A model generated the notes under the pieces. That model was not told the DNA's origin. It did no database searches and saw nothing but the letters and a program-made list of their open reading frames with translations. Position numbers and translations under genes: made by a program. From NCBI GenBank assembly GCA_944392835.1, contig CALXYB010000008.1:4821-68820 (forward strand): DNA of 64,000 nt, given 5' to 3'. The stretch is from an uncultured Alphaproteobacteria bacterium. Lineage in GTDB: Bacteria; Pseudomonadota; Alphaproteobacteria; RF32; CAG-239. Shown here one piece after another: positions 3,519 through 47,764 of the stretch. How positions within the stretch are numbered: position 1 is the first letter of the stretch; each line of letters opens with the position of its first letter.

Positions 3519-3799
3519 AATACACCTCACAACAGTTAAAACCACAGCCCTTTTATAGGTGAGGATATATATGAATATATGCAAAAATAGAAAGGGATTT
3601 CCGGGCACACTACCCCTATACCTTTAACACACACTCCGACTACGGCACCCCGTATCGGATAACACCCACACCTTAATATAGAATAGAACGATTTTGAGAC
3701 TTAGTCAACTATCAATGATACCGATAGATAAAAAAATTCATTATTTTAGGCATAAAAAAAGCCCCTCTTCTTGGGGCGTGTTTTTTGAGGGACAATCTG

Positions 3800-10588: not shown

Positions 10589-10622
10589 TTTGTGCCCTTT
10601 CGTTAACAATTTAAACAAAAAA

Positions 10623-30427: not shown

Positions 30428-30560
30428 CTCTTACTCCTTTGCTTGTTTTCTTTTTATTGAATTAGAAAACGGCGACAAAGGCAAGAAAATATTTTACCTT
30501 TCTATCTTTCTCTTTCTTCGCAATAAAAAAACCCTCCACTGCGGGAGGGAATTTTTTTAT

Positions 30561-31346
30561 TTAATATTGCAAGATCTCATTATCATCAGGAACTACAACA
30601 TTTTTTAACTTTAGTTTTTTGATGTCATCTCTTGTAACTGTCAAATGGCTGACTGTGTCCATATGGCTGGCAACAATAATCGCTGAAGGCGCATAGGCGG
30701 CTATGGTCTTGACATCCTCATCATTCATAATGATTCTTTCCCCATTAAGCAAAGTTGCACCACAAGCATTAACAATAATCACATCCGGCGTGAACTTATT
30801 GATTGCTGCAATCACTTCATCGCACCAAATTGTGTCTCCGGCAAGATATAGCGTTTTTTCTGTCTTCGCTTTAAAAACTACGCCCATAGCATCATAGGGC
30901 ATATTGATTTGTTCACATAGGGGTTTAATGATTTCTCTTTTTCCGTGTTGTCCGCCGGTTTTATAAAGCATGCTACCTTCAAAACTCGTTCCATCTTCAG
31001 ACATGATGTTTACATTCTTAAAGCCTAAGGATTTAATTTTATCTAAATCTTCCTCACTTTGCACAAAGAAAGGCAAGTTTTTATCAATAGCCTCAACGGC
31101 GAATTCATCCCAATGATCCGGATGAAAATGGGTTAAAATCACGGCATCAACATCAACAATATCTGAAATAGGTAAAGGTAAATCTACCCTGGGTTGGCGC
31201 ACGTTGGCATTTACGGCCACGTCAAAGCCCGCCATATAGCCTTTGGGCATAAGCCATGGATCAATCAAAAATCTCGTTTTGTTATAGGTGATTATGAGAG
31301 TGGCATTGCGTATTTGATGTATTTGCATATTATTTACTCCAATCAA
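30561..31346 (-). CDS. MBL-fold metallo-hydrolase
   Basis: HFHPDHW motif. Confidence 0.7.
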   Translation of the reverse strand: MIGVNNMQIHQIRNATLIITYNKTRFLIDPWLMPKGYMAGFDVAVNANVRQPRVDLPLPISDIVDVDAVILTHFHPDHWDEFAVEAIDKNLPFFVQSEEDLDKIKSLGFKNVNIMSEDGTSFEGSMLYKTGGQHGKREIIKPLCEQINMPYDAMGVVFKAKTEKTLYLAGDTIWCDEVIAAINKFTPDVIIVNACGATLLNGERIIMNDEDVKTIAAYAPSAIIVASHMDTVSHLTVTRDDIKKLKLKNVVVPDDNEILQY

Positions 31347-31896
31347 AATCAGTTAATGTTTTTTTCAGATGTTGGGTATAATCACGAATAAAATTGACGG
31401 CAAAAACAACTTCTTTTTCATTATAACGGCTTAAAAATTTTAAGTCTTTTTTATGCCATTTTTGGTGAATATTCTCGTGCGCTTGAAAAACCTTTTTACC
31501 GTGTTCCGTCAGTTTGTAATAAATCTCTTTTTTATTGTTTGGCGTTTGATAAGGTATAATTGTATTTTTGGAAATAAGTTTTTTTATCAATTTGCTAATT
31601 CCGCCGCGGGTGATATTCAAATCCTGCGAGATTTTTGTTACATTTGAATCTTCTATTTTGCCTATGTGTTCTATACAATGCAGTTCTGTAATTGTATAAT
31701 TTTGCAAAATTGCCTCAGCCTTGTCCTTGAACGAGTTTTGCATAAGCTCAAAGGTATTAAGCAGCACTGAAAGAAACGTATTTAAATCTTTTTCCATAAT
31801 TGGCCTCTGGAAATATTCTGACATTACAATAAATTTATATAAGATATTTTGTTTCCTTGTCAACAAAATATGGACTAAAGATTTAGTATTCTGCAT
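31330..31896 (-). CDS. MarR-family transcriptional regulator
   Basis: Winged-helix region ITRGGISKLIKKLISKNTIIPYQTPNNKKEIYYKLTEHG. Confidence 0.55.
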   Translation of the reverse strand: MQNTKSLVHILLTRKQNILYKFIVMSEYFQRPIMEKDLNTFLSVLLNTFELMQNSFKDKAEAILQNYTITELHCIEHIGKIEDSNVTKISQDLNITRGGISKLIKKLISKNTIIPYQTPNNKKEIYYKLTEHGKKVFQAHENIHQKWHKKDLKFLSRYNEKEVVFAVNFIRDYTQHLKKTLTDFDWSK

Positions 31897-31911
31897 AAAT
31901 AGTAGAAACAG

Positions 31912-32439
31912 TCAGGCAAGATGAGTGAGAATAAAGCTCTTCCATTCATCAAGCTTTTCTTTCGGGCTTTTGCGCGCGTTGGCAGAACTTGTGGACGGCA
32001 AGACATTATTTCCGTTATTGGTTCGTGTTAACAGCCAATTTTTTAAATCTTCGTTTTTTTCTTGCCGGATATATTTATCAAACAGCTTTTTGGCATTGCG
32101 ACTATTAAAAACAATATATTTAATTTTCGGGCAATTTTGCTTTATGATAGAAAAATCGTTATATTCCTGCTTGGTGATGGTGTTATCACTGCTCCCTTGA
32201 ATATGACAAGTTTTTATAACATCCCACAAACCGACACCATTTTTCAATAAGCAAGCGTAACGCTCCGCGCTGTTACCGTTTATGACTTCCTCCGCGTTAA
32301 AAATATCAGCAATGATTTTCCAAAACTGGTTTTGCGGATTGTTATAATAACACTTGTTTCTTGATTTTTTACTTGGAAAAGTCCCTAAGATGATTAACTT
32401 TGTTTCCTTATCAAAAACATAATCCAGACCTTTTTCCAT
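31912..32439 (-). CDS. uracil-DNA glycosylase superfamily protein (family-6 hypoxanthine-DNA-glycosylase-like)
   Basis: Motif A-like LIILGTFPS and motif B-like LPSTSSAN. Size about 175 aa. Confidence 0.45.
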   Translation of the reverse strand: MEKGLDYVFDKETKLIILGTFPSKKSRNKCYYNNPQNQFWKIIADIFNAEEVINGNSAERYACLLKNGVGLWDVIKTCHIQGSSDNTITKQEYNDFSIIKQNCPKIKYIVFNSRNAKKLFDKYIRQEKNEDLKNWLLTRTNNGNNVLPSTSSANARKSPKEKLDEWKSFILTHLA

Positions 32440-32490
32440 TTTATACCTCTATGTTTAGCCCTATCTTTTCGCCCTTTGAGATGTTTTAAA

Positions 32491-33036
32491 TTAGAGCTTA
32501 ATCCAATATCTTTTGTATTTTTGACCGCTATTATCCCATGGCAAAGTAATAATATTTTCTAAAACACCATTATTTTTTTCAATGGCTTTCCATGAGCCTA
32601 TATTTTTCTCTTTGGCGGCTAAAAGTAATTTATCCATTTCAAGCTCTCGCGCTTTAGATATGAGCAACGCCAAGCCTTTGGTCGCATATCCCATTCTTCT
32701 GTATTTTGGTGTAATTCCATAACCAACATTTCCGCCGACATACATCAAAAAATCATTCAATTTAGTTCGCAAATTAAAAGCACCTATAAACCTGCCGTTA
32801 TCAATGAGCCAATATGTGATTTGCGGCGCATTGGGATAATATTTGCCGTCATCTCTTAACCTTGGTGTCGGGTCATAAGGTTTTAATAATTTATTCCTCA
32901 GAAAAGCCTCAAAATCTTTTTCAATCTCGGCTATTTCCTCAACACTCTTTGGAGATTGTGAACCTAAATAAAAACCTTCTCTTAAAGCTTCTATAAAACT
33001 ATCTTTATATTTTATGTCCGGCTTAACTAATTCCAT
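32491..33036 (-). CDS. GNAT-family N-acetyltransferase
   Basis: RRMGYATKGLALLISKAREL acetyl-CoA-binding motif. Confidence 0.6.
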   Translation of the reverse strand: MELVKPDIKYKDSFIEALREGFYLGSQSPKSVEEIAEIEKDFEAFLRNKLLKPYDPTPRLRDDGKYYPNAPQITYWLIDNGRFIGAFNLRTKLNDFLMYVGGNVGYGITPKYRRMGYATKGLALLISKARELEMDKLLLAAKEKNIGSWKAIEKNNGVLENIITLPWDNSGQKYKRYWIKL

Positions 33037-34925: not shown

Positions 34926-35438
34926 TTATTTGTAGTAATCGCGTGGATTACGAGAGCAACTTTCTAAAAGATTTTTTCCCGATTTTGCTCCCTGCCAACC
35001 TCTACGATTTGCTTCCCAATCATCTGATGATGCTTGAATTCCATCTTTCATTACTCCATACGGAAATTCTCGTGCTGTACTTAAAGTTTTTGCAACAAAT
35101 TCTCCCCATTTTCCCCTTTTAGCGGCTTCATAATTTGCTTTACAATGAAAAAATTTATCATTTCCTATAGTGGCATCTTCTTCCATCTCTTTTTTATTTT
35201 GCACAAAGTCATAAAATGGAGCTAATAACCCCGTTCTTGTTTTTCCTGGATAATTAGATTTATTTTTCTGCATATATTCATTGAGATGAGCCTCTGTCTT
35301 TTTTCCCCAATTTTCAGAAATATTTGATTTTTTTGTTCTATATGTTTCTAAATAATCCTTTTTACTATTTTCAATATTATCAATAGAAAATTTTTTAGAA
35401 GGATCTTCTTGTATAATATATCTTATTAAATTACTCAT
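34926..35438 (-). CDS. serum amyloid A (SAA) domain protein with N-terminal MSNLIRYIIQEDP tag
   Basis: IGNDKFFHCKANYEAAKRGKWGEFVAKTLSTARE and DDWEANRRGWQGAKSG align closely with the vertebrate SAA core ([34 protein letters not shown] ... ADQAANEWGRSG). Start trimmed to ATG 35438 with AAGGA RBS. Confidence 0.65.
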   Translation of the reverse strand: MSNLIRYIIQEDPSKKFSIDNIENSKKDYLETYRTKKSNISENWGKKTEAHLNEYMQKNKSNYPGKTRTGLLAPFYDFVQNKKEMEEDATIGNDKFFHCKANYEAAKRGKWGEFVAKTLSTAREFPYGVMKDGIQASSDDWEANRRGWQGAKSGKNLLESCSRNPRDYYK

Positions 35439-35477
35439 TTCTTTTTCCTTATTCTTTGTTAATTTTAGATACAAAAA

Positions 35478-36014: not shown

Positions 36015-36050
36015 GCAGCCATTCTCATGACTGCCGTTTGAATTGATGAT
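36015..36050 (+). repeat. terminator hairpin + degenerate boundary core (gtttgaattgatgat)
   Basis: Terminates the radical SAM gene in minus orientation. Core is related to the TTGGTGAT repeats. Confidence 0.35.
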
Positions 36051-36091
36051 ATTGTTAGTCTAAAGTTGCGAAAATATCTATTAGTTTTTTA

Positions 36092-37348
36092 TTAACGTTC
36101 TTTTATTTTATTTTTCATAAAAGTATTAGAAAATTGACAAAATCCACCACATTTTATCCCTTCTGGTGAATTATTGACATCACAATCCTTGCATGCCTCT
36201 TGTGTTTTTAATCGTGAGCGCAATGTATAGTCTAGCTCTTGTAGCAATGCTTCAGGTGTATACTTTTCAATTGGCCCTTTCTTATGCTTACGATCCATAT
36301 GACAAACTAACAGACGACCATTTACATCAATGTTTATTAGTTGACGAATATCACAACCATAATACCTTGATTCTTGTATTTTATCTGCTAAATGGACGGT
36401 GTTGTGAAAAACATGCGGATTATTTTTGTGTTTTTCATAAATGCTCCTCATATCAACATTCTGCAATTCATTATTAGCAGCGGCTCCTGCAATTATTGTT
36501 GGACGGATAAATAAATTTATTTCAAATGGTTTTAAATATTCAACTAATCTATCAATACCAGGTTCATTATCTTGATTGACTGTACATAACAAAGAACAAT
36601 TTATGCCATTTTCTTTTAATATCTTAATTCCTTCTATATCTTTTGCAAAAAGTCCTGGTCTTTTTCTACTTTTGTCATGTAATTCCCCGTATGAGTCAAT
36701 ACTTATAATTATATCACTTGAACTTTTTAATGAATTAATAGTTTTTTTATCTAATGAAGACAAATACTCTCCGTTAGTTACAATTGTATATAAAAAATTT
36801 TCTTTATTAACAAAATCACAAAGTTCAGATAGATCTTTTCTAAGCAAAGGCTCACCACCTAAAATTTCGAGTCTAGTTATTCCTAATTTTTTTAAGTGCT
36901 TGATTCTTTTTTTCAAAGTATCCAGAGAAGGCGGAGGTGTTGGAATTTCTGCTTTATAACAAATATCGCAATTACACTGGCAAGCATCTGTAATTTCAAT
37001 TCTGCCATAATAAGGCAAGTCATTATTCAAACAGTGAACTTTCTTAAAAGAATTGGGATGATTAGTTTGTTCTATTAGTTCATGACTGAGTAACTTCTGA
37101 ACTATAGATTTAGGCATTCCATTCAGATTAAAAATCGGTTGTTGAAGAATTTCTACCATTTCATTATCCAGAAACAAAACACTATTTATTGTTTTTCCTG
37201 ATATAGCCAACGTTCCATTAGGAGATATTCTGAGTAAGCTATTCTTCATAATAGAGTACGTTTCTGTGCCTATATAAACAGAGGTATCTTCTTTAATAAA
37301 CTCTTTTTTACATGGAACAGCTCGACTGTATAAATTTGTTACTTGCAT
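36092..37348 (-). CDS. radical SAM enzyme with C-terminal SPASM/twitch domain (peptide- or protein-modifying maturase-like)
   Basis: CQCNCDIC (CxxxCxxC). C-terminal Cys cluster CHMD...CKDCD...CGGFC. About 130-aa N-terminal extension, possibly substrate recognition. Start trimmed to ATG 37348 with AGGGG RBS. Confidence 0.75.
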   Translation of the reverse strand: MQVTNLYSRAVPCKKEFIKEDTSVYIGTETYSIMKNSLLRISPNGTLAISGKTINSVLFLDNEMVEILQQPIFNLNGMPKSIVQKLLSHELIEQTNHPNSFKKVHCLNNDLPYYGRIEITDACQCNCDICYKAEIPTPPPSLDTLKKRIKHLKKLGITRLEILGGEPLLRKDLSELCDFVNKENFLYTIVTNGEYLSSLDKKTINSLKSSSDIIISIDSYGELHDKSRKRPGLFAKDIEGIKILKENGINCSLLCTVNQDNEPGIDRLVEYLKPFEINLFIRPTIIAGAAANNELQNVDMRSIYEKHKNNPHVFHNTVHLADKIQESRYYGCDIRQLINIDVNGRLLVCHMDRKHKKGPIEKYTPEALLQELDYTLRSRLKTQEACKDCDVNNSPEGIKCGGFCQFSNTFMKNKIKER

Positions 37349-37413
37349 TTCATGGCCCCTAAGCGAGTTATTTTTACATAAAAACAATTAACAGTAATAT
37401 TTTTATCAAAAAA

Positions 37414-37444
37414 TGTCAATATTTTGTCAAAAAAAATATTGACA
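37414..37444. promoter_or_regulatory. perfect 12-bp inverted repeat (TGTCAATATTTT-N7-AAAATATTGACA) in divergent promoter region
   Basis: Read directly from the sequence between the rSAM gene and the kinase-HIT-AlaRS-like operon. Candidate operator. Confidence 0.45.
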
Positions 37445-37591
37445 CAGCAAATTATTAACGATATATTAACACAAAAAAAATGCAGTAAATTAAATAATTA
37501 ATTACACAAAATTGTAAATTTTATATAACTTCTAGCAAAATTAATCTTATTTCTTATTAATTTTTTCTAAATTAATATTGTAAAGGTAAAA

Positions 37592-38197
37592 ATGAAGAAC
37601 ACAATAATCTATTTAATTGGAGGCCCCGGAGTTGGCAAACAAACTATTGCTAAAGAAATTCAAAAAAAGCAATCTTTTACTTTAGTGGATAATCATTCGT
37701 ATACAAATGCCATTTTTTCGATATCAAAAAATTATTCTCATCCTAAACACGAAGAATACAGACTAAAAGTACGCAATATTGTTCTTGAAGCTATGGGCGA
37801 AATTTGTCCCAAAGGCGAATCTTTTATATTTACAAATGTAATATCTTTGGGCGAAGAAACTTCATATTATAAGCCAGTTGAAAATCTTGCTAATACACGA
37901 CGCTCCTTATTTATTCCTGTAATGTTATTATGCGAAATGAAAGAGAATCAAAAAAGAATAGCTAATCCTTTTCGCAAAAAATTTTTGAAAACAATAAATC
38001 CCGAAGCAGTCCAACAAATTGCGAACTTAGGACTGCCGGAGATAGAACACCCTAATCTTTTACGTTTAGATGTTACTAAGCTATCTGCAGCAGAAGCTGC
38101 TCTACAAATTATAACGCATGTTAACCATATTAGAAAAAAACAAAATGGTTATTATTCTAAATTCTCAACAAAAGCCAATGGAGGGGCAAATTTATGA
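37592..38197 (+). CDS. P-loop NTPase / small-molecule (nucleotide) kinase-like protein
   Basis: Walker A GGPGVGKQT at N-terminus. About 200-aa size, typical of AAA_33/CPT-like kinases. Stop overlaps next start (ATGA). Confidence 0.55.
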   Translation: MKNTIIYLIGGPGVGKQTIAKEIQKKQSFTLVDNHSYTNAIFSISKNYSHPKHEEYRLKVRNIVLEAMGEICPKGESFIFTNVISLGEETSYYKPVENLANTRRSLFIPVMLLCEMKENQKRIANPFRKKFLKTINPEAVQQIANLGLPEIEHPNLLRLDVTKLSAAEAALQIITHVNHIRKKQNGYYSKFSTKANGGANL

Positions 38198-39006
38198 TAA
38201 AAAATTGCGTTTTGTGCGATGGTTTAAAAGACGAGTTTCAAAATATTAAGGAACAATACCCTGAACTACAGAGCAATGTAACTTTGTTTGAAACTAAAAA
38301 CTTTAAAGTTATTCCAGATAAATTTCCGATTGCACCTAATCACATTATTATTCTGCCGAAAGAACATATTAATACATTTGCTGAATTTAATGAAGCCCAA
38401 GGGCGAGAAGTTGGTTATATATTAGATCGTTTAGAGAACACAACAAAATCTGATAATTTTATTATGTTTGAACACGGAACAAGTAAATCTGAAGAGTTAA
38501 ATACTCCACCACATATTAAGTCAATATTTCATGCACATTTACACTTTATTCCAAATGTTAAATGCAATACAGAGGATATGGATGTTTTTTTTCAACAGAA
38601 AAACGTTCAATTACTTGATTATGATGGTTCTCAAAGAAATATATCTGAGTTTCAAACACAATATTCTGGAAATGCAAATTTAGTCAATTTTATTAAAGAC
38701 AATGTTATATATGAAGATTCTGCTCGTACTTCAGTTGAATCCTATTTTTATATAAAAAGCTCAGATAATACACAATTATTCTTTCCAGAAAGACTTGTAA
38801 CGCCAAGAATTCCATCTCAATTTTTACGAGAGGCTTTAAGTGTGCAATGTGAAACACCTGAATGGAACTGGAAAGTCGGCATGACTGCTGAGGGGCGTCA
38901 AAAATATGGAACGAGAATTGTACAAATGGCCAAATTATTTAAGCAAAATGATTATAATAATATTTTAGTTATGACCAAATTTAAATCTGGTTATGGTAAA
39001 GAATAG
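38194..39006 (+). CDS. HIT (histidine triad) superfamily nucleotide hydrolase/transferase-like protein
   Basis: N-terminal CVLCDG. Histidine triad HAHLHFIP (HxHxHxx). Translationally coupled to the upstream kinase. Confidence 0.55.
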   Translation: MIKNCVLCDGLKDEFQNIKEQYPELQSNVTLFETKNFKVIPDKFPIAPNHIIILPKEHINTFAEFNEAQGREVGYILDRLENTTKSDNFIMFEHGTSKSEELNTPPHIKSIFHAHLHFIPNVKCNTEDMDVFFQQKNVQLLDYDGSQRNISEFQTQYSGNANLVNFIKDNVIYEDSARTSVESYFYIKSSDNTQLFFPERLVTPRIPSQFLREALSVQCETPEWNWKVGMTAEGRQKYGTRIVQMAKLFKQNDYNNILVMTKFKSGYGKE

Positions 39007-39015
39007 GATAAAAAA

Positions 39016-40119
39016 ATGAAAATAAAAGATATGCCAAGATTTAATAGAAAAGAAAGTCATTTTCATATGCAAAATATGATTGATGGTTTTCTTAATTACT
39101 TTCAGGAACATTCTTGTATAAAACATGAACCGGTTAAAATCTCATCAGGGATTGATCCATCTGTTCGCTTTATTGGCTCTCACATCAGTGTTTTAAAGCC
39201 TTATTTTTTAAATGACAACATTCCTACAGGAGGATATGTTATGTCACAGCCATGTATTCGTACACGAAATTTAAAAAATTATGAAAATGATGATTTTTAT
39301 CCCAATTGGGGATCATATTTCCCAAGTCTTGGAATACTGACTAAACCTGAAAGATTGGAGGATATTACAAAACAAACTTATAGCTTTATTCAAGAGCAGT
39401 GGAATATTGATCCTCACGATATAAGAATTCGTATTAGTGCTAATGATACAGATTTGATGGATCTAGCTCATAGTATATTCAAGTCCGAAATGTTTGAAAT
39501 AGACACCATGCAACCAAAATATTATCGCCACAAACTTGGTATAGATGGTGTTTGGGGGCGTAATTTCAATCTTGCTTTACGTGATTATGGAAAAGATACT
39601 TTTTCAGACATTGGAAATGTTATTATTTTGGAAAATCAGGATAAACAGCTTGGAATAGAAATTGCATTAGGAAGCTCTACTGTATTAAAACAAATTTATG
39701 GATTAAGTCATGTCATGGATTGTCACCCTGTATTAGGATTGGATAAGTATATTCAAAATCCTAATATCCGTGTAAAGATGGAAGATACAATTGTTACAAG
39801 TATGGCCTTATATAATGATGGACTAGAACCATCTAATAAGGATAACACTAACCGCTTGATGAAAAAATATCTTGAGATAATGAAAGCTTGCGTTGACAAG
39901 ACAAATCTCCCCAAAGAGGTTCTTAGAAAAACACTATACCAGTATGAATTATTGGAATATGGTTCAAATAATGGAATATATACTCAAAAAATTATGGATT
40001 TTATTTGTTCATCTTCTCAAGCTCAGAAATCAAAAGCTTTAGAAAATAAACAACAATTGGAAGCTTCTCCCTCAAATTCCATAATTTTTACATTATCGCA
40101 AAATAAATTATCTAGATGA
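39016..40119 (+). CDS. alanyl-tRNA synthetase catalytic-domain paralog (truncated, stand-alone class II aaRS-like)
   Basis: FLNYFQEH..DPSVRFIGSHISVLKPYFL..SQPCIRT..NDDFYPNWGSYF aligns with the AlaRS N-terminus FLDFFHSKGH..DPTLLFTNAGMNQFKDVFL..SQRCVRAGGKHNDLENVG..FFEMLGNFSF. 367 aa, versus about 875 aa for AlaRS. Confidence 0.55.
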   Translation: MKIKDMPRFNRKESHFHMQNMIDGFLNYFQEHSCIKHEPVKISSGIDPSVRFIGSHISVLKPYFLNDNIPTGGYVMSQPCIRTRNLKNYENDDFYPNWGSYFPSLGILTKPERLEDITKQTYSFIQEQWNIDPHDIRIRISANDTDLMDLAHSIFKSEMFEIDTMQPKYYRHKLGIDGVWGRNFNLALRDYGKDTFSDIGNVIILENQDKQLGIEIALGSSTVLKQIYGLSHVMDCHPVLGLDKYIQNPNIRVKMEDTIVTSMALYNDGLEPSNKDNTNRLMKKYLEIMKACVDKTNLPKEVLRKTLYQYELLEYGSNNGIYTQKIMDFICSSSQAQKSKALENKQQLEASPSNSIIFTLSQNKLSR

Positions 40120-40269
40120 CATTCCTCCGTAAAATTTTGGGAGCTATGAATATGCTTAAAGGATAGGATTGTGTTGAGTAGCACCTAAGCATTTTACCGA
40201 GAATAACCTCTGAACTTACATCAAGACAACTACTTAAAGAAAAGCGGGAAGTAACATTCCCGCCTTTCT

Positions 40270-41268
40270 TTAATGCTCCAATATTTCAATAATAGGTAAT
40301 TTATCTCCCTGCATTTTCAGTGAAATCTGTCCTCCGATGGGATAGGTAATAATTGGAGTTGTATGACCGATATCAAAATTAGCAATTACTGGTAAATCAT
40401 TTAATGCTTCTTTAGTATGAATAATCTGTTCAAGCAAATTTCTATCAATTTTAGATTCTGGTCTAAAACGACCAATAATCAGTGCCTTAACATATTTAAA
40501 GTCGGCTTGTTGAATTAAAGACTGCAACAAACGGTCAAATAAGACGGCATTCGTTTCTTCATCTTCTTCTAAAAATAGAATAGAGTTTTTCAAAGATGGC
40601 CAGAATTCAGTGCCTTGTAAAGAACTTAAGCAACGGACATGGCCCCCAATCAATTTCCCCTCGAATATATTTCCTTTTCCTTTATTTATAATCCAAAACC
40701 CATTATTGGGTGTAAAATTACGTTTTTCCTGATCCATAAACCATTCATCATTGCTATATTCTTTAGCCGGTGTAACTTGATAGGGTGTATTCTCAATTAG
40801 ACATTTTTTAAAATAATCCAAGGTATAATCAAAACCGTGAAGCATTCCAAAACTTGAAAAATGCGGTCCAGAGTAAGTTACAACATCTGTCTTTGTTGTT
40901 ATTGCATGACAAAGACATGTAATATCAGAAAAGCCACATAAAATCTTAGGATTATTTTTTATAAGTTTATAATCAATTCTATCAATCAATTGATTTGTAT
41001 TAAAACCACCAATAGCTGTTAAAATACCATCAACATTTTTATCCGCAAAAGCCTCATGTAAATCTTCAAGCCTTGAAGCAATTGATGAAGAGACAAAATC
41101 ATCAATCTCATCGCAATGTTTAGAATAGCTTACTGATATCCCCATATCTGCAAAACGTTTCTTTGCGATTTCACGCGTTTCTTCAGAAATGATTTTAAAA
41201 CTTCTTGATGGGGCAATTATACGAATATGCGCCCCTGGTTTTAATTTTTTTGGACAAATCATCAGCAT
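40270..41268 (-). CDS. LD-carboxypeptidase (peptidase S66, MccF-like)
   Basis: Ser nucleophile motif GFSDITCL. His in IGHT. 332 aa. Confidence 0.75.
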   Translation of the reverse strand: MLMICPKKLKPGAHIRIIAPSRSFKIISEETREIAKKRFADMGISVSYSKHCDEIDDFVSSSIASRLEDLHEAFADKNVDGILTAIGGFNTNQLIDRIDYKLIKNNPKILCGFSDITCLCHAITTKTDVVTYSGPHFSSFGMLHGFDYTLDYFKKCLIENTPYQVTPAKEYSNDEWFMDQEKRNFTPNNGFWIINKGKGNIFEGKLIGGHVRCLSSLQGTEFWPSLKNSILFLEEDEETNAVLFDRLLQSLIQQADFKYVKALIIGRFRPESKIDRNLLEQIIHTKEALNDLPVIANFDIGHTTPIITYPIGGQISLKMQGDKLPIIEILEH

Positions 41269-41402
41269 CTCCTAATTTTAATAAACTTTTATTTAACCAT
41301 CAATATCATAAAGCAACTTAAAGATGATATTAAAATTCGTCTTGCAATAAAATCTAAGCCTATTTTTTTATGTAAGTCAATTAAAATATAAAATCTACAA
41401 TA

Positions 41403-42074
41403 TCATCCATATATCTCATCAAGCTTTTGTTCTAGATTTCCGGATTGAACGGCTGGTAACGTGTCAAATTGTCTCAGATTATGCTTTTCTATCTTAATTT
41501 CGTCACTGAAGCCTAAGATATAGGCGATAGCTATGCGATATATAATTTCTGTCGGAGCCAAACCGTAAACCTGATTGGCAAAAATATGTTGTAACCGTTC
41601 TTTATCATTCGGAAAGGCTTGTTTCATCTTCTCGTTTCTGTATAATCTTTTAACAATTTCGGTAATATAAAGACCAGATTTCATATATAAGTCGATAAAG
41701 GTTTTATTAGGATCATCAAAGCATTCAGGATTTTCCGCCAATAAGCTATCTACCATTTCCACAACCACTTTCTTGGGGGTGTATATTTGGTTGGTCTTTT
41801 GGGGTGGAATATAATCGAAAATGTCTTCTTTGCTTGCTTCATCAAAGTAATTTCCTAATTTTCGTTTCAGATTAAGAAACTCTTTAACCTCTGACAAATC
41901 GACATTTCCGGAAACTTCTCCTCCTAAAACTACAGTATTATCTTTAAGCAAAACCTCCACCGAATAGCGGATATTCTTATCTTGAGCCAGCAGGCGATCC
42001 AAAATGTATGATGAAATATAATCTGCTGTTTTATCAGGATGCCCGAGAGAAACAAACTCTGCCGTCTTTTTCAT
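41403..42074 (-). CDS. protein with S-adenosylmethionine synthetase (MetK) N-terminal-domain homology, otherwise divergent
   Basis: SLGHPDKTADYISSYILDRLL...VVLGGEVSG aligns with MetK [21 protein letters not shown]...MVLVGGEIT. Start trimmed to ATG 42074 with AAGGA RBS. The listed upstream extension covers leader hairpins. Confidence 0.5.
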   Translation of the reverse strand: MKKTAEFVSLGHPDKTADYISSYILDRLLAQDKNIRYSVEVLLKDNTVVLGGEVSGNVDLSEVKEFLNLKRKLGNYFDEASKEDIFDYIPPQKTNQIYTPKKVVVEMVDSLLAENPECFDDPNKTFIDLYMKSGLYITEIVKRLYRNEKMKQAFPNDKERLQHIFANQVYGLAPTEIIYRIAIAYILGFSDEIKIEKHNLRQFDTLPAVQSGNLEQKLDEIYG

Positions 42075-42323
42075 AGTTTTTCCTTCATAAAAAAAGCCCG
42101 CAGAATTTAATCTGCAGGCACAAACAAAAAAGGGAACAAGCCTTAAACACAACTCGTTCCCGATTATAGCTATTTTTATAAACTATTTTTCAGTTTTTGT
42201 CTTGTCTGTTTTTGTCGCAACCATAAACATTCATACGTATGTAATCGATAAAAATATCATTGCATACGTACAGAATTTAATTTACTATACGTTTTAGTTT
42301 ATAAAAAATATAAAGGTAAAAAA

Positions 42324-43331
42324 ATGTACGACGGATCAATTTCAAACTATAATAAAATAGAAGAGGATGCCTCCTACCATGAAATTATATCTTTTGAAGA
42401 TGAAAAGGACATTCGCAAACGATATTTAGACGAGCTTGCAAAAAATAAAGATAATTCACAGAAAATATCCGTTCTAAATGTAGCATTGATTAACTATTTT
42501 ATTAAAAAAGATAGATTTGATTTAGCTAAAGATGTGTTAAAAAAACAAACCTCCTTTTGCACAGAAGAACTTATAACATTGTTCGCATCTAAAATTGATG
42601 TAGAAATTCTGAGCAAAACAGACGTAGATTTTATCAATGAAGTTTTAAAATATTTATCGCACATTAAAACGAATAATAACGGACATCATGTAATTCACGA
42701 TTTAAAAGAAAAGATCAAAAAAATTAAAGAGAAAATCAAACAAGAATCAAAGAAAAAAAATGATAAGTATAAAAACAAAGAAACAAAATTATCTACCTCA
42801 TCTCAAAAAAAAGAAAATTTAACAGTAAGTCAGAATAAAGCCGAATCTCCTGAAGAGGCAATATCTTTCTTATCAAAATATATCAGCGAACAGAAACAAA
42901 ATATAAAAACCTTGAATGAAGAAAAACAGCTCATATTATCCCAAGTTAATACTTCTCAGAGAAAATTAGATGATTTAACAAAACAGTTACATACGGTAAT
43001 TCAAGAGAAAAAAGCAAAATCTTTTGAATTAGAAGATATTGAACAAAAATATAATAAGTTGAAAAAAGAAAATGATACTTACAAAATAAAAACACAAAGA
43101 AATGAAGAAGAGTTAGGCAAGAAAATTGAAAGCCTATCAAATAGTATCGATATTCTTAAAGAGAGTCATAAAATTGAAATACAATCTCTAAAAATCAATA
43201 TAAGAAATAAATTGAAAATAAGATATGATGATTTTTTAGATAAAAAAGATGAATTATCAAATAATCAATTGAAAATTTTAATTGCCAATATTTTTGCAGA
43301 CTTAGAATATCTTGGCATTAAATTCAAATAG
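42324..43331 (+). CDS. coiled-coil protein, hypothetical
   Basis: K/E-rich heptad-like C-terminal half. Stop overlaps next gene. Confidence 0.45.
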   Translation: MYDGSISNYNKIEEDASYHEIISFEDEKDIRKRYLDELAKNKDNSQKISVLNVALINYFIKKDRFDLAKDVLKKQTSFCTEELITLFASKIDVEILSKTDVDFINEVLKYLSHIKTNNNGHHVIHDLKEKIKKIKEKIKQESKKKNDKYKNKETKLSTSSQKKENLTVSQNKAESPEEAISFLSKYISEQKQNIKTLNEEKQLILSQVNTSQRKLDDLTKQLHTVIQEKKAKSFELEDIEQKYNKLKKENDTYKIKTQRNEEELGKKIESLSNSIDILKESHKIEIQSLKINIRNKLKIRYDDFLDKKDELSNNQLKILIANIFADLEYLGIKFK

Positions 43332-44748
43332 GAGATTAATTATGGGCTTCTGTGGTATTGATTTTGGAACAACAAATACAGCTATGGTCTATTTTTCAGA
43401 ACACACAGGAATGATATTTGTAGGGGATGAAGAAGAAAATTTACCTTTACCATCTATAGTTGCGTTAAACAAACATACTGGCGAAATCATTGTTGGAAGT
43501 GATGTAAAAAGAAATATACAGAAATATACTAGAGATTATGAAATAGTTTTATCAATTAAGACTGTTTTGGATGATCCTAAACAGGAATGGAATGTTGCTG
43601 GTCGAACATTAAAGCCTGTAGATATAGCCGCAGAAATTTTTAAAACTCTTAAAAACAATGCAACTAAAAGAAAAATAGATATATCAAAAATTGTAATTTC
43701 GGTCCCTATTAATTTTTCATCTGGAAAAAAAATATGCCTTCGAGAAGCTGCCAAAAAAGCCGGATTGGACATCAAAAAATTTGTAAATGAACCTACCGCA
43801 GCATTTTTAGCTCATTATGAGGAGTTAAAATCATTTTCTAAAACAGTTATTTTTGATTGGGGAGGCGGAACTTTAGATATATCTGCATTAGATATTAAAA
43901 ATGGTACTATTAGAGAAATATACACAGATAACATGTATAAAGCGGGAGATAATATAGATAAAGACCTGGCCCGTAGTATTTATGAAAAATCCATAAAAAA
44001 ATATGGTTTGTCGCTTATTCCTTTTGATAAAATAGAAGCCGACGAATATGATGAATTAATCGCAAAAGCAGAATTAGCAAAAATTTACTTATCAAAAGAT
44101 AACCAGAATCGATATGATGATTTTTGCAAAATACAAGGTAAAATACGAGATATTACCGTAACATACGAAGATTTATGTAATATTTCTGAAAATATAGTCA
44201 ATGAAGCTATAAGCAAATTAAATCATGTAATAAGTAAAGCATATAATGAACGAGTGCATTGCATTTTATGTGTAGGAGGCTCCTCAAATCTAAGAAACCT
44301 TAAAGAAAAATTGAGAAAAATTTATGGTGATATCCTGTATTTTCCTGATTTTCCACAATGGGATATAGCAAATGGTGCTTGTATTATAGATGCCTCAAAT
44401 AGAAATAATGTCTATAAACTGGCTTACGATATTAATCTAATTTTATCAAATGGAGATAAATATCCTCTTTTAAAAGAAGGTCAACTCATTCCTTGCAAAG
44501 AATCAAAAATACATTTATCGACTGTTGATTGCTCAGAAAATGCAAATTTTGTATTTCAATTTGGTCAAGATGAATATCATGAAATAACAATTCCTCTTCT
44601 AGGTGGAGTTGATGAGACTTTTGATTTATTCACATATATTGATAACTATTCTGTCTTGCATATAGATATGAAGAATAACAAAATTCAAGAAGATGAAAGA
44701 TACAATATATTTCGATATGAAAAACTAGATTTATGTTACAACGTGTAA
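43312..44748 (+). CDS. Hsp70 (DnaK)-family actin-fold ATPase, stand-alone
   Basis: GIDFGTTNTAMV phosphate-1. DWGGGTLDIS phosphate-2. NEPTAAF connect motif. 478 aa with no DnaK substrate-binding-domain signature. Confidence 0.7.
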   Translation: MALNSNRRLIMGFCGIDFGTTNTAMVYFSEHTGMIFVGDEEENLPLPSIVALNKHTGEIIVGSDVKRNIQKYTRDYEIVLSIKTVLDDPKQEWNVAGRTLKPVDIAAEIFKTLKNNATKRKIDISKIVISVPINFSSGKKICLREAAKKAGLDIKKFVNEPTAAFLAHYEELKSFSKTVIFDWGGGTLDISALDIKNGTIREIYTDNMYKAGDNIDKDLARSIYEKSIKKYGLSLIPFDKIEADEYDELIAKAELAKIYLSKDNQNRYDDFCKIQGKIRDITVTYEDLCNISENIVNEAISKLNHVISKAYNERVHCILCVGGSSNLRNLKEKLRKIYGDILYFPDFPQWDIANGACIIDASNRNNVYKLAYDINLILSNGDKYPLLKEGQLIPCKESKIHLSTVDCSENANFVFQFGQDEYHEITIPLLGGVDETFDLFTYIDNYSVLHIDMKNNKIQEDERYNIFRYEKLDLCYNV

Positions 44749-44757
44749 GGATAAAAA

Positions 44758-45486
44758 ATGTTATCTATAAATTCCAATATCCAGTACAAAAGTAATGTTT
44801 ATATTGTTTCTAGCTCATATAGTCCTTATGATGATTCATCTTTCATTCATCAAGTATATGATGCAAAGAAGTTGAACGAAATAATAAAAAAATCTCGTTT
44901 TGGAGATGTATTGTTGACAAAAGTACAAAGATATATTTTAGAGAAAGATGTAGTTTGTGTTTATGCAAAAAAATTTCTAAAAAGTGAAACAGCGCAATAT
45001 TTCGTTCTGACAAAACACAATGAAGAGAAATGTAAATGCCAAATTGTTGATTGTCCTTTATTTGAGCAATGCCGTCCAAATGAAAAGATTAAAGCTAAAA
45101 CAGAGCAAGAGAGATTTAATAACTTAAGTATTGCTGAGAAAATTGATAATACCCATTATTATCCTATTATGCTAAATTTTGACAGAGTAATTGAGAGATG
45201 TAGCGATAATGCTTTTGACATTATATCTGATATAGATATGACGCAATATCAATATAATGATAATGTGACCTTTTCATATGTTGGAGATGGAAATGGTGCA
45301 AATTGGGACAACTGGGTCGGAGGAAGTGAAGAAAGGTATTTTAGCTCAGAAAAAAAGACAAAAAACATCCCTGTAGTAGATTTAACTTCTGATGTTCAAG
45401 CCTCTAATAACCCTATGTTAGAATACCAAAAAAGACACTTAAATCTAGATAATGAGTTTTTTAAGAAAATAAATAAAACCCCATAA
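44758..45486 (+). CDS. hypothetical protein (third gene of Hsp70-like operon)
   Basis: 10-nt gap from upstream gene. Hairpin terminator overlaps stop (45478-45500). Confidence 0.4.
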   Translation: MLSINSNIQYKSNVYIVSSSYSPYDDSSFIHQVYDAKKLNEIIKKSRFGDVLLTKVQRYILEKDVVCVYAKKFLKSETAQYFVLTKHNEEKCKCQIVDCPLFEQCRPNEKIKAKTEQERFNNLSIAEKIDNTHYYPIMLNFDRVIERCSDNAFDIISDIDMTQYQYNDNVTFSYVGDGNGANWDNWVGGSEERYFSSEKKTKNIPVVDLTSDVQASNNPMLEYQKRHLNLDNEFFKKINKTP

Positions 45487-45512: not shown

Positions 45513-45926
45513 TTATAATATTTTTTCAACCAAAATCTTCACCAGCGCTTTTTCGTAGTGGCGGCTGAGGTTGCTGCGGTGAAGACCAAACTCATAGCTC
45601 AAGACTTTCCATGGGATTCTGGCGCCGCGTTTCCATACCAGCTTTCTTTCCCAAGGTTCCAACACTTCTAGCCACTCCAAAACCTCGTCCATTTGGGTAA
45701 TTTGTTCCGTTGTCGGTCTTATCTTGATTGGTTTTCTATCCATAAAGGCGATTTCTTGCGGTGTATAGATAATATCCGGCATAGTGGAGTGGTAGCCTTG
45801 AACTTTTACCGGCGGCAGGAGTTTCATTACATAAACCGCGGATTCAATTCGCATTTTGATATCATCAAGGGTTAAGTTTGTCATTGAACACCTCCTTGCC
45901 GAGCTAATTTCGGCAGACGGAAACAA
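45513..45926 (-). CDS. phage/plasmid-associated putative DNA-binding regulator
   Basis: Small basic C-terminal helix region. Overlaps start of upstream gene (coupled). Confidence 0.3.
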   Translation of the reverse strand: MFPSAEISSARRCSMTNLTLDDIKMRIESAVYVMKLLPPVKVQGYHSTMPDIIYTPQEIAFMDRKPIKIRPTTEQITQMDEVLEWLEVLEPWERKLVWKRGARIPWKVLSYEFGLHRSNLSRHYEKALVKILVEKIL

Positions 45927-46540
45927 TCGCCAATGGGTGAAAATGAGTTCAATCCTGCATCACCCTTAGCCCATTTAATGACTTTGGCTTGCCAGTCGGT
46001 TATGGGTTTGTTACCGGTTTTCCACTGCTTTGCTGTGTAATAATCGTAAAATTCTTGCGGATTGATGTTTTTTAAGCCACGAACGGCACAATAAATCTTC
46101 ACATCTTCCAAACTCGGAACATCGGCAAGATATGAACTTTCTTTTTTGTTAGTTTTTTCTTTTATTTCCTTCTTTATTTTTTGGTTTAAATCATCTTCAT
46201 TTTTATTTTCATTATCATCTTCATCCTCATTAAGCTTGGCATTTGCCGATTTTTCAGCTTGCTTTTGCTCGGCATTTGCTCTGCGTTTGCTGGCGGCTTT
46301 GGTTGCTATTGCTCGCCGTTTTTCACAAACCGCATCATATTTTGAGAAATTGTCTTTAATGCTCTCGGCCATAAAATCATAGGCTTTGCTGATTTCTTGA
46401 GATACGGGTTTCATGGGTTCACCATACAAAACCATTTCACACAGAGCAGTCATTAACTCTCCACGCTGTTTTAAGTTAAGATGATTGGACAAGGCCAAAA
46501 ACTCCGGTGCGAACACGATAAAACTTTTCTTTTTATCCAT
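45881..46540 (-). CDS. putative replication/replisome-organiser-like protein (phage or plasmid type)
   Basis: N-terminal HTH-like region. Acidic and basic low-complexity middle. AGGAGG RBS. Confidence 0.35.
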   Translation of the reverse strand: MDKKKSFIVFAPEFLALSNHLNLKQRGELMTALCEMVLYGEPMKPVSQEISKAYDFMAESIKDNFSKYDAVCEKRRAIATKAASKRRANAEQKQAEKSANAKLNEDEDDNENKNEDDLNQKIKKEIKEKTNKKESSYLADVPSLEDVKIYCAVRGLKNINPQEFYDYYTAKQWKTGNKPITDWQAKVIKWAKGDAGLNSFSPIGDCFRLPKLARQGGVQ

Positions 46541-47137: not shown

Positions 47138-47764
47138 TTATAAATTATCTATATTTTGTTGCAATTCATTTATAAATTTTGAAACATGCCTCCCATCACA
47201 AACAGCATGATGTGCCAAAACAGAAAAAGGAAGTATTGTTTTGCCGTTTTCTTCAATATATTTGCCCATAGTAAAAATAGGCATCAAGTAGTCATAACCT
47301 TGCTTCAAGTTTAAATTGAATGAAGAAAAATGAAGCCATGGTAGCATAGATACATAAAAAATATTAGGAGGACAATTCGGTTTGGCTTCATATTTCATTA
47401 TATTGCCATATTTATTAACATCAGAATTATAATTCCGGCAAAAAGTCTCAAAATCAGGATCATATTCACTCCAAATTCCTGAAAAAGTTTCCGTTTCTTT
47501 GTGAAAAATCGTATATGCCGGATGAACAATATCAAAAAAACCTAAAATTCCATCATCATCAAACATTGTTCGAAATTCTTCATGTTTATTAACAAGTCTA
47601 GCCAATAAATACAGCATTGCTGGGTAAAGTTTTAAACTTTTATTCCTGAGATTGGAAATATCTAAATTAACCGTTATACTAAACGTTGTGGGTACATTGC
47701 TATAAAATTGTTCAAAATATTCTTTACGTTCTCGCTGTTCCATATTGATTGGAGTAAATACCAT
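47138..47764 (-). CDS. catP: chloramphenicol O-acetyltransferase (type A, CatP-like)
   Basis: Collinear high similarity to clostridial CatP (KLYPAMLY, TETFSS, IFTMGKY, HHAVCDG catalytic His motif). 208 aa. Confidence 0.9.
   Translation of the reverse strand: MVFTPINMEQRERKEYFEQFYSNVPTTFSITVNLDISNLRNKSLKLYPAMLYLLARLVNKHEEFRTMFDDDGILGFFDIVHPAYTIFHKETETFSGIWSEYDPDFETFCRNYNSDVNKYGNIMKYEAKPNCPPNIFYVSMLPWLHFSSFNLNLKQGYDYLMPIFTMGKYIEENGKTILPFSVLAHHAVCDGRHVSKFINELQQNIDNL

Follow-up and report, generated by a model that had tools for sequence, protein, structure and literature searches.

The gene at positions 39016 to 40119 of the 64,000-nucleotide stretch of DNA analysed here (the window) encodes AlaL, a real, horizontally acquired and strongly diverged copy of the catalytic core of alanyl-tRNA synthetase (AlaRS). 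Because the AlaL family sits almost always beside a peptidase of the microcin-C-immunity type, we suggest from sequence context that AlaL most probably serves to make, or to act on, an aminoacyl-nucleotide antimetabolite and does not supply translation with charged tRNA. We establish here the homology, fold and landmark conservation of AlaL, its horizontal acquisition, the mobility and operon structure of its five-gene cassette, and the statistical linkage and fusion of the family to its partners. The features of the cassette, in window coordinates, are:

36037 to 41889, no strand: cassette block, more than 99% identical to contigs L002, L003 and L005, whose flanks differ.
36092 to 37387, minus strand: radical-SAM enzyme with a CX3CX2C motif, a Cys-rich SPASM/twitch-like C-terminus and an N-terminal extension of ~125 aa.
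37415 to 37467, plus strand: promoter/operator conserved in L007 and L008.
37592 to 38197, plus strand: P-loop kinase-like protein, 201 aa, Walker A GGPGVGKQT.
38194 to 39006, plus strand: HIT-like protein, 270 aa, HIT domain at residues 26-121, triad HAHLHFIP.
39016 to 40119, plus strand: AlaL, AlaRS-like protein, 367 aa, ATG start, class II core and ~100 helical residues.
40244 to 40263, plus strand: GC hairpin resembling a terminator, in the gap where the AlaL and S66 genes converge.
40270 to 41268, minus strand: S66 serine peptidase of the MccF clade, 332 aa, Ser/Glu/His triad conserved.
41403 to 42152, minus strand: chimeric remnant ORF, a MetK N-domain fragment with a ResIII C-terminus, at the right cassette junction.

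The similarity between AlaL and AlaRS is real, weak at the level of the single sequence and significant once a family profile is used. The Pfam model tRNA-synt_2c (PF01411) scores 24.0 bits (E 1.8e-5) over residues 22-84 only, under its gathering cut-off of 30.3 bits; TIGR00344 (alaS) reaches 22 bits against a threshold of 457, and a single-sequence phmmer search of the PDB returned no AlaRS, only spurious Hsp90 matches. A profile of 39 family members finds the AlaRS fragment 1riq in the PDB (E 6.9e-8), and hhalign sets it against E. coli AlaRS 1-461 with a probability of 93% (E 3e-7), AlaL 20-287 pairing with AlaRS 7-315, that is, with the whole core. The AlaRS assignment of a preliminary description of this DNA is below the tRNA-synt_2c cut-off and significant in the family-profile comparison, and the AlaRS-like strings quoted there reappear in the hhalign alignment, DPSVRFIGSHISVLKPYFL opposite DPTLLFTNAGMNQFKDVFL and SQPCIR opposite SQRCVR. 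The AF2 model of AlaL (pLDDT 90.5, pTM 0.85) has the AlaRS-specific aminoacylation-domain fold: Foldseek retrieves AlaRS catalytic fragments (E ~1e-14, TM 0.67-0.74), and the closest fold is AlaRS, not SerRS. Identity to AlaRS is 14%, which makes a translational role very unlikely. The editing domain and C-Ala are absent, as had been claimed, together with the region of AlaRS Asp400. The tRNA-recognition part, claimed to be missing too, is present in its beginning, with which residues 249-349 align; after these ~100 helical residues the protein ends. The full domain has Asn303 and Asp400 as its reference points for reading G3:U70, and the residue opposite N303, Asn274, is confined to the window protein and lacks conservation across the family.

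Public gene calls place the start of AlaL either at that of the ORF (P0274, 367 aa, on 56 contigs) or inside it (P0001, 362 aa). The gene has a GC3 of 0.22 and its cassette neighbours 0.20-0.23, whereas asnS (5619-7007) has 0.50 and further backbone genes lie at 0.47-0.51. The window has no canonical alaS. The earlier proposals of a composition unlike that of the housekeeping asnS, and of an acquired, stand-alone, truncated paralogue of the AlaRS catalytic core that is not the housekeeping synthetase, are borne out. The family is patchy in its distribution and has spread by horizontal transfer; its members, annotated as hypothetical throughout, fall into hundreds of clusters at 50% identity. 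Starting from high-GC members, homologue searches returned 6 and 14 proteins of the family, AcmF (see below) not among them, and viral, phage and plasmid collections contained no AlaL homologues.

The active-site landmarks of AlaL, scored for conservation over 39 family sequences with E. coli AlaRS as numbering partner, are R82, W98, F102, D198, N201, I203, E215, A217, G219 and K225. R82 occupies the place of the motif-2 Arg (E. coli R69), and D198 and N201 those of AlaRS E209 and N212; all three are invariant in the 39 sequences. The alanine pocket is altered, Asp235, Gly237 and Val214 being replaced by Glu215, Ala217 and Ile203, each larger by one carbon; the residue at D235 is invariant in the close family and Glu or Gln in distant members. 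The motif-2 loop is rewritten as C-x-R-T-R/Q-N. In motif 3 the Arg (E. coli R242) is displaced: Thr222 takes its position, one helical turn before Lys225, which is invariant (Arg226 in distant members). The roles of the alanine-pocket residues in AlaRS were reportedly worked out by Guo et al. in 2009. They are also given in PMC12945691. On conservation of the alanine and ATP sites, which the preliminary description had put up for checking, R82, D198, N201 and E215 are retained or conservative replacements, and the motif-3 Arg is changed.

Missing from the preliminary description are the points that tell us most: the MccF-type peptidase partner, the neighbouring HIT gene, the mobile cassette of five genes and the precedent of the ascamycin enzyme AcmF. 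Two of the functions first proposed find no support in this comparison. A plain resistance decoy is unsupported because the active site has been remodelled by these four replacements, not copied. An amino acid:carrier-protein ligase is likewise unsupported, because neither the cassette nor the conserved neighbourhood clusters hold a carrier-protein ORF and because the AlaL model is nearest AlaRS and not SerRS; the known ligases of this kind are SerRS-like. One review puts them under AlaRS (PMC9437257). AlaL might also be catalytically inactive, a paralogue with a bound amino acid or adenylate whose task is to regulate or target a partner, as HisZ does HisG, or it might be one subunit of a split housekeeping AlaRS. 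This pair of ideas strikes us as far-fetched: the motif-3 Arg position is indeed not Arg, but the catalytic-site landmarks are invariant across very divergent members, and a fusion of a receiver domain to AlaL suggests that AlaL is the output enzyme. We rejected a split AlaRS on the divergence, the foreign composition and the lack of an adjacent gene for the missing AlaRS parts.

The kinase, HIT and AlaL genes are translationally coupled behind one conserved promoter, the HIT start overlapping the kinase stop (ATGA) and the HIT gene ending 9 nt ahead of AlaL. The operator contains an 11-nt inverted repeat, GTCAATATTTT (37415-37425) and AAAATATTGAC (37433-37443), that overlaps the -35 TTGACA (37439); the -10 TATATT lies at 37462-37467. 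Between the radical-SAM and kinase genes there is a single small ORF (37424-37501, 25 aa, ending Asn-Asn). We considered it as a RiPP or microcin-C-type precursor and rejected it, since it and the promoter overlap and it lacks conservation in L007 and L008. Matches of the kinase-like protein are weak (AAA_18, 26 bits; adenylate, APS and dephospho-CoA kinase models, E 1e-3 to 1e-2), and the C-terminal ~150 aa of the HIT-like protein have no match and a single-sequence AF2 pLDDT of 36. HIT and AlaL co-occur in L005-L008 and L010; L006 carries only HIT-AlaL-S66, without kinase or radical-SAM, in an unrelated chromosomal context, and the AlaL-S66 spacer varies in length (33 bp in L007). The window cassette has no exporter, dedicated AlaRS, sulfamate-pathway gene or ThiF-like ORF (ThiF/MccB adenylyltransferase). 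Rfam riboswitches and T-boxes were absent from the window and seven related loci, and dedicated tRNA genes show no consistent linkage to the AlaL operon. The island around the cassette is variable, and CAT, GNAT and restriction-modification remnants are found in it too; in other contigs, restriction-modification and AAA_15 genes flank the cassette.

The radical-SAM gene (418 aa in the public call) bears on the idea of anti-phage defence, in which a viperin-like radical-SAM enzyme and the kinase would supply a nucleotide on infection, AlaL would cap it, and S66 and HIT would uncap it or protect the host. The gene matches the PADLOC pVip models, partially (63 bits, 6e-18), the cassette is mobile and elsewhere lies beside restriction-modification and AAA_15 genes, and DCD, NUDIX and kinase genes, typical of nucleotide-based defence, are among the family's neighbours. 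However, the enzyme is of the SPASM type, with SkfB (2e-10) and BlsE as its best PDB matches and viperin only at E 1e-3, and its identity as viperin was rejected at 53.8 bits against the 180-bit NCBIfam cut-off. PADLOC is, moreover, silent on AlaL, HIT, the kinase and S66, L006 dispenses with both radical-SAM and kinase, and phage and viral collections lack AlaL homologues, so we consider a defence role decidedly improbable.

Of 49 non-redundant loci, 37 have an S66 gene within 4 kb of AlaL, in most cases immediately downstream and in the same orientation; in the window the two converge, and in L029 they are fused. The window S66 appears to be of the MccF type and is much closer to the MccF clade than to LdcA. 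Its strongest PDB matches are BA_5613 and Lmo1638 (E ~1e-102 to 1e-97), followed by MccF of B. anthracis (8e-39) and E. coli (6e-30) and by LdcA (~1e-17). The triad S118, E243 and H311 is invariant in the family alignment. Compared with the adenine-stacking Trp186 loop of MccF, the corresponding loop of S66 is shorter by 5 residues, and its conserved Trp is offset from W186 by two alignment columns. We found no published substrate in the literature for the BA_5613/Lmo1638 clade, the nearest to the window S66. The Pfam family is named LD-carboxypeptidase and NCBIfam LdcA scores 99 bits, which leaves some room for peptide or cell-wall metabolism: S66 would act on murein peptides, and AlaL, in Patescibacteria with an AsnA-like paralogue, would re-activate or ligate the released amino acids, for instance in remodelling stem peptides or cross-bridges. 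The module is indeed common in small Patescibacteria genomes, often near synthetase genes, and the AsnA-like partner could simply make asparagine. We nevertheless judge this role distinctly unlikely, given the far closer kinship of S66 to MccF-clade proteins, partners that are nucleotide-directed (HD, SAM-methyltransferase, HIT, kinase, DCD, NUDIX), the absence of linked mur, mpl or ddl genes, and a patchy, horizontally transferred distribution.

Across the family, AlaL is linked by adjacency and by fusion to S66, HD, methyltransferase and GNAT enzymes, and the S66, HIT and GNAT classes all recur beside it or fused to it. Besides AlaL-S66, we found AlaL-HD, AlaL-methyltransferase, GNAT-AlaL and receiver-domain-AlaL proteins, and also methyltransferase-S66; co-occurrence counts for methyltransferase and HD are from phmmer only, and the HMM-iterated counts include fusion proteins. 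DCD, NUDIX and kinase genes are further neighbours. The AlaL-S66 module is widespread in small Patescibacteria genomes, where it often lies near synthetase genes and has an AsnA-like paralogue as partner. Basal clades look, from their gene content, as if they sit in natural-product or antimetabolite clusters, in keeping with what had been foreseen for relatives of AlaL: one context, in Serratia, has two dCTP-deaminase-like genes, a methyltransferase, two ATP-grasp L-amino-acid ligases and an MFS gene, another has two DCD genes with a sulfotransferase, MatE and a FemAB-like gene, and some clades adjoin NRPS genes.

These basal contexts also weigh on the proposal that the island confers resistance only, with HIT, S66 and AlaL neutralising exogenous aminoacyl-adenylate-mimic antibiotics of the microcin-C, ascamycin or agrocin kind. 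AlaL would then be a high-affinity trap, or would run the reaction of the ascamycin enzyme AcmF in reverse, with tRNA or water as the acceptor of the aminoacyl group. S66 and HIT are known types of microcin C immunity enzyme, the cassette lacks an exporter and lies in a variable island with CAT, GNAT and restriction-modification remnants, and its source is a gut alphaproteobacterial MAG; microcin-C producers inhabit the gut. Yet deeper family members keep company with ATP-grasp ligases, a FemAB-like transferase, a sulfotransferase, a methyltransferase and exporters, which indicates synthesis; the remodelled pocket does not mimic AlaRS, and a stoichiometric decoy leaves the invariant catalytic-type residues and the HD and methyltransferase fusions unexplained. 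On balance, resistance alone seems unlikely.

The antimetabolite reading can be drawn out as a model, to which, reasoning largely by analogy, we give somewhat less than an even chance as a whole: a non-translational descendant of the AlaRS core would make an aminoacyl-adenylate-like compound, S66 and HIT would cleave it, and the kinase and radical-SAM enzyme would be accessory. (i) AlaL would join a small amino acid, of Ala or Gly size, to a nucleotide-type acceptor, by analogy with AcmF and its transfer of Ala onto a sulfamoyl adenosine in the old adenylate site. (ii) The MccF-clade S66 would cleave the aminoacyl-N bond of such a compound, for self-protection or turnover. (iii) The HIT-like protein would, to the same ends, cleave a P-N or phosphoanhydride bond. 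(iv) The kinase and radical-SAM protein may be accessory tailoring or precursor enzymes. We infer the chemistry of AlaL, the nature of the acceptor, the donor (an ATP-activated amino acid or an aminoacyl-tRNA) and the action of S66 and HIT on the AlaL product. Several observations count against the model. Fusing a synthetic enzyme to a hydrolase of its own product looks futile, although MccE sets a precedent for a biosynthesis-immunity fusion; the cassette is without exporter, dedicated AlaRS and sulfamate-pathway genes; AlaL retains the N212 Asn that is Gln in AcmF, and the AcmF landmark spacing matches only in part; the C-terminal half of HIT is uninterpretable; and the nearest S66 clade is without a published substrate that we could find.

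More speculatively, and with more doubt than belief, AlaL-S66 modules may be a widespread, unrecognised route to aminoacyl-adenylate-mimic poisons like microcin C or ascamycin, free of ribosomal peptide and MccB. The aminoacyl-N (or O) bond to a nucleotide would be made in a recycled AlaRS site, S66, HIT and GNAT would provide self-protection as they do against microcin C, and the route would be especially common in Patescibacteria, with a compact, mobile cassette of 3-5 genes in gut Alphaproteobacteria. To the sole characterised AlaRS catalytic-core paralogue, AcmF (2024), AlaL adds a whole family with a sharply defined set of partners. Were the proposed chemistry true, it would amount to new enzymology for the warheads of synthetase inhibitors. 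It would also help in mining uncultured lineages (Patescibacteria, gut Alphaproteobacteria) for nucleoside and nucleotide antimetabolites, and would supply a physiological substrate for the MccF-like S66 clade of BA_5613 and Lmo1638, a large orphan group with solved structures. The minimal HIT-AlaL-S66 trio is small enough for direct testing in E. coli.

Among known class II paralogues reduced to the core are AsnA/archaeal asparagine synthetase A, EpmA (GenX/PoxA), HisZ and the amino acid:carrier-protein ligases; the 2022 review that treats them names no AlaRS catalytic-core paralogue (PMC9437257). Like AlaL, they keep the core without anticodon or tRNA domains and reuse it for tRNA-independent acyl transfer or regulation, but they stem from other synthetase lineages, and AlaL has no EF-P, carrier-protein or HisG partner. 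In agrocin 84, the synthetase-like AgnA and AgnC1 are proposed to acylate a nucleotide through a phosphoramide bond, yielding a synthetase inhibitor (PMC8323819). The transfer of an acyl group onto a nucleotide, a proposal in both cases, is what we envisage for AlaL, whereas the agrocin lineages are different (AgnC1 is ProRS-like) and immunity rests on a resistant LeuRS copy.

Aminoacyl-nucleotides of the microcin-C type are detoxified by MccF (S66), MccH (HIT) and MccE2 (GNAT) (PMC8323819, PMC7157772), and the same three classes accompany the AlaL family. The partner S66 keeps the MccF triad, a SAM-dependent enzyme of methyltransferase fold, as in the role of MccD, is a frequent partner, and both systems have biosynthesis-immunity fusions (MccE; AlaL-S66 and GNAT-AlaL). 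Unlike microcin C, the AlaL cassette has neither a ThiF/MccB adenylyltransferase nor a conserved MccA-like peptide gene, its bond-forming enzyme would be the synthetase-like protein, and the window S66 falls in the uncharacterised BA_5613/Lmo1638 subclade.

A close parallel is AcmF of ascamycin biosynthesis (Streptomyces sp. JCM9888/80H647), an AlaRS-like, aminoacyl-tRNA-dependent transferase (PMC12945691, PMC4257720) that moves Ala from Ala-tRNA to the sulfamate nitrogen of 5'-O-sulfamoyl adenosine in the old adenylate site (PMC12945691). It is annotated with 370 aa (PMC4257720), and the reported E374A mutant implies a somewhat longer protein (PMC12945691). We compared AcmF through published residue descriptions, and a kinship closer than both being AlaRS-like is unproven. 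AcmF has Gln where AlaL has N201, and AcmF-type transferases are also marked by a loss of ATP-binding residues; on that side AlaL shows the rewritten motif-2 loop and the displaced motif-3 Arg. The Arg-to-Phe spacing of AcmF is 11 against 20, and its partner hydrolase AcmE is an alpha/beta hydrolase and not an S66. A complete AlaRS (AcmD) is encoded in the acm cluster, along with genes for sulfate activation, sulfotransferase and sulfatase; the window has none of these. AcmF and AlaL are nonetheless alike in being truncated, at ~370 aa, to an aminoacylation domain followed by a portion of the tRNA-recognition domain. Both have Glu in place of the Asp to which the amino group of alanine binds (AcmF E232, which is essential (PMC12945691); AlaL E215), keep the motif-2 Arg (R93; R82) and the Trp-x3-Phe pair of the adenine-binding strand (W100/F104; W98/F102), and share a spacing from N/Q to Glu, 13 and 14 residues, that is shorter than the 23 of E. 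coli. The acm cluster contains an APS kinase and radical-SAM proteins, as the window cassette contains kinase-like and radical-SAM genes, and an aminoacyl-removing hydrolase, AcmE, accompanies AcmF, as the S66 peptidase, putatively of like action, accompanies AlaL.

The open reading frame at 39016-40119 on the plus strand does encode the proposed protein of 367 aa (AlaL), whose AlaRS ancestry is marginal on single-sequence evidence: the match to Pfam tRNA-synt_2c (24 bits, E 1.8e-5) covers residues 22-84 only and falls below the 30.3-bit gathering score, TIGR00344 alaS scores 22 bits, and phmmer of the single sequence against the PDB gave no AlaRS among its matches. With relatives included, the relation is solid. 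In all, 180 homologues of ~330-390 aa were retrieved, every one unnamed or 'hypothetical', and an alignment of 39 family sequences, used as a profile, matched AlaRS catalytic fragments in the PDB (E 6.9e-8). By hhalign against E. coli AlaRS 1-461 (probability 93%, E 3e-7), that alignment pairs AlaL 20-287 with AlaRS 7-315, and the confident AF2 model (pLDDT 90.5, pTM 0.85) retrieves AlaRS fragments with Foldseek (E ~1e-14, TM 0.67-0.74). The block-by-block alignment in the preliminary description is therefore borne out; of the domains it listed as missing, editing and C-Ala are indeed absent, but of the tRNA-recognition domain ~100 helical residues (249-349) remain.

Residues were mapped onto E. 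coli AlaRS via hhalign, with conservation read within the AlaL family; the roles of the mapped residues follow AlaRS structures and PMC12945691. AlaRS R69, E209, N212, V214, D235 and G239 correspond to R82, D198, N201, I203, E215 and G219, all invariant, and G237 to the nearly invariant A217, while motif-3 R242 falls on T222, where the family does not have Arg. One helical turn past T222 lies the invariant K225; distant members carry R226 as their basic residue. Where AlaRS has its specific strings IFYDHG and IWGGPPG, the family has YYRHK and VWGRNFN, both invariant, and the GPCGPC loop is deleted. Together, these landmarks make the site look functional but re-tuned, rather than a decayed copy. 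A non-catalytic or split-AlaRS role seems to us highly improbable. The 64-kb window holds no canonical alaS.

AlaL sits in a cassette (36037-41889) with the following elements:

36092-37387, minus strand, SPASM-type radical-SAM gene, first in cassette order
37415-37467, conserved promoter and operator-like element with an 11-nt inverted repeat inside
37592-38197, P-loop kinase gene, between promoter and HIT-like gene
38194-39006, plus strand, HIT-like gene, its start overlapping the kinase stop
39016-40119, plus strand, AlaL gene, starting 9 nt past the HIT-like gene
40244-40263, hairpin between AlaL and S66 genes
40270-41268, minus strand, S66 peptidase gene, convergent with AlaL

The inverted repeat is perfect (GTCAATATTTT / AAAATATTGAC, 37415-37443), overlaps the -35 box in the promoter of the kinase, HIT and AlaL genes and is probably an operator for some regulator, because it is kept in two related cassettes (L007 and L008) that are 84-90% identical. 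The HIT-AlaL-S66 trio is the minimal unit, since one related locus (L006), in a chromosomal setting unrelated to the window's, carries that trio only. We rejected a viperin identity for the radical-SAM enzyme: PADLOC pVip matches partially (63 bits), NCBIfam viperin reaches 54 bits against a 180-bit cut-off, and the top PDB matches, SkfB and BlsE, are closer.

Among solved structures in the PDB, the S66 peptidase matches BA_5613 'MccF-like' and Lmo1638 (E ~1e-102 to 1e-97), B. anthracis MccF (8e-39), E. coli MccF (6e-30) and LdcA (~1e-17). In an alignment that includes E. coli MccF from an mcc plasmid, the S118/E243/H311 triad is invariant, and a conserved Trp lies two columns off the adenine-stacking W186 of MccF, in a shorter loop. 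Metabolism of murein or peptides is a doubtful explanation of this partnership, and an island serving resistance only is unlikely, if a little less so.

The five cassette genes have a GC3 of 0.20-0.23, whereas asnS and the other backbone genes measured lie at 0.47-0.51, and the block recurs at >99% identity on contigs with other flanks, namely ResIII/Eco57I restriction genes or an AAA_15 ATPase. An anti-phage system based on nucleotides is an improbable explanation. The exact AlaL protein is present on 56 contigs, and the window itself comes from a MAG of an uncultured gut alphaproteobacterium. A 1104-aa ResIII gene flanks the cassette in related loci (L002-L005). The minus-strand ORF 41403-42152 is chimeric, with an S-adenosylmethionine synthetase N-domain fragment (residues 29-87) and a C-terminal ~162 aa 99% identical to the C-terminus of that ResIII gene; it looks like a scar left by deletion or recombination rather than a working gene.

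Elsewhere in the window, three co-directional genes (42324-45486, plus strand) encode a coiled-coil protein of 335 aa, an ATPase of 478 aa with the Hsp70/actin fold (Pfam HSP70 1e-33) and an unmatched protein of 242 aa; PADLOC matched none of the three, which may form an uncharacterised island module, and L001, a related locus, has a single 328-aa minus-strand gene in their place. A gene for chloramphenicol acetyltransferase (Pfam CAT 2e-73) stands beside DUF6362/DUF6291 genes (47138-47764 and 45513-46540, both minus) in the same low-GC island as the cassette, so an antibiotic-resistance gene rides on the variable region. Upstream in the island (30098-33036, minus), MazG-like pyrophosphohydrolase, metallo-beta-lactamase-fold, MarR-type regulator, UDG-superfamily and GNAT genes form another set directed at nucleotides and xenobiotics. 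A bacterial protein with a serum-amyloid-A-like domain (PF00277, 4.6e-16) shares its N-terminal ~20 residues in likeness with a second ORF 25 kb off (34926-35474 and 9677-10618, both minus), and 1665-3608 (minus) encodes a secreted-looking, extremely Cys-rich protein of 647 aa with many C..YGC..Y..DC..KCQ.A.TDNCRNRT-type repeats.

Searched exhaustively, the AlaL-family profile retrieved 859 clusters (50% identity) at E<=1e-3, a number that falls to 299 at E<=1e-30; nearly all of the best 150 matches listed are 320-400 aa. The 47 loci taken from species genomes lie in Patescibacteria, alpha- and gammaproteobacterial MAGs, a Calothrix plasmid, Serratia, Dysgonomonas, Firmicutes and archaea. Within 4 kb of AlaL at 49 non-redundant loci, counted by phmmer only, we find an S66 peptidase (37 loci), an AsnRS-core-only paralogue resembling archaeal asparagine synthetase A (31), a SAM methyltransferase (30) and a YedJ-like HD phosphohydrolase (12), the first three together in 27. 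In most cases the S66 gene follows immediately downstream in the same orientation, and its products are 50-58% identical to the window's. Fusions tie these parts, GNAT and receiver domains together: AlaL-S66 (L029), AlaL-HD and methyltransferase-S66 (L042), AlaL-methyltransferase, GNAT-AlaL and receiver-AlaL. In three Gracilibacteria-, Peribacteria- and Patescibacteria-type loci (L040, L046, L049), full-length AlaL (L046, L049) and S66 (L040) ORFs appear only when UGA is sense (code 25); the L040 AlaL is found already under code 11.

A rough NJ tree places the window clade inside the S66 crown group, beside L009 and L010; in this clade HIT, alone or along with kinase and radical SAM, has replaced the AsnA-like, methyltransferase and HD genes. 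Basal clades are without S66, and their loci look like biosynthetic clusters: one (L053) has two DCD genes, AlaL, sulfotransferase, MatE and FemAB-like genes, another (L054) adjoins NRPS genes, and two (L044, L037) carry radical SAM, DCD, NUDIX and GNAT. Cultured Serratia plymuthica and S. nevei, likewise basal, share a conserved 8-gene cluster (L045 8012-15480; L050 7968-15460) of methyltransferase, two dCTP-deaminase-like proteins, AlaL, metallophosphoesterase, two L-amino-acid-ligase ATP-grasps and MFS exporter, which looks like an uncharacterised, putative peptidyl-nucleoside cluster, and in which the product of the family would be easiest to find.

The best-supported reading, which we hold tentatively and at somewhat under even odds, is that AlaL makes an aminoacyl-nucleotide of the aminoacyl-adenylate-mimic type. 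The donor would be an ATP-activated amino acid or aminoacyl-tRNA, acceptor and product being likewise presumed, and S66 and HIT would act as a safeguard, deacylating or as a phosphoramidase. Of the preliminary description, the truncated, acquired paralogue and its natural-product-like setting stand; the amino acid:carrier ligase and the simple decoy do not. What is new is the gene partnership of AlaL, conserved and experimentally tractable.

AlaL has affinities with AcmF-like aaRS-derived transferases and with MccF/MccH-type immunity; a 2022 review of aaRS paralogues gives no catalytic-core paralogue of AlaRS (PMC9437257). The ascamycin cluster encodes AcmF, an AlaRS-like protein that is likewise truncated and was annotated at 370 aa in 2014 (PMC4257720), although a reported E374A mutant implies a somewhat longer one. 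With Ala-tRNA as donor, AcmF alanylates dealanylascamycin at its sulfamate nitrogen, with an essential Glu232 in place of AlaRS Asp235, and AcmE takes the alanine off again (PMC12945691). Compared by its published description, AcmF resembles AlaL in size and architecture, the Asp-to-Glu change, the W-x3-F pair and a shortened N/Q-to-Glu spacing, but has Gln where AlaL keeps Asn and differs in motif-2 loop length. For agrocin 84, aaRS-like enzymes have been proposed to make its phosphoramide bond (PMC8323819). In microcin C, MccE is itself a biosynthesis-immunity fusion, and immunity comprises exactly three enzyme types, S66 MccF, GNAT MccE2 and HIT MccH (PMC8323819, PMC7157772), each of which recurs with AlaL.
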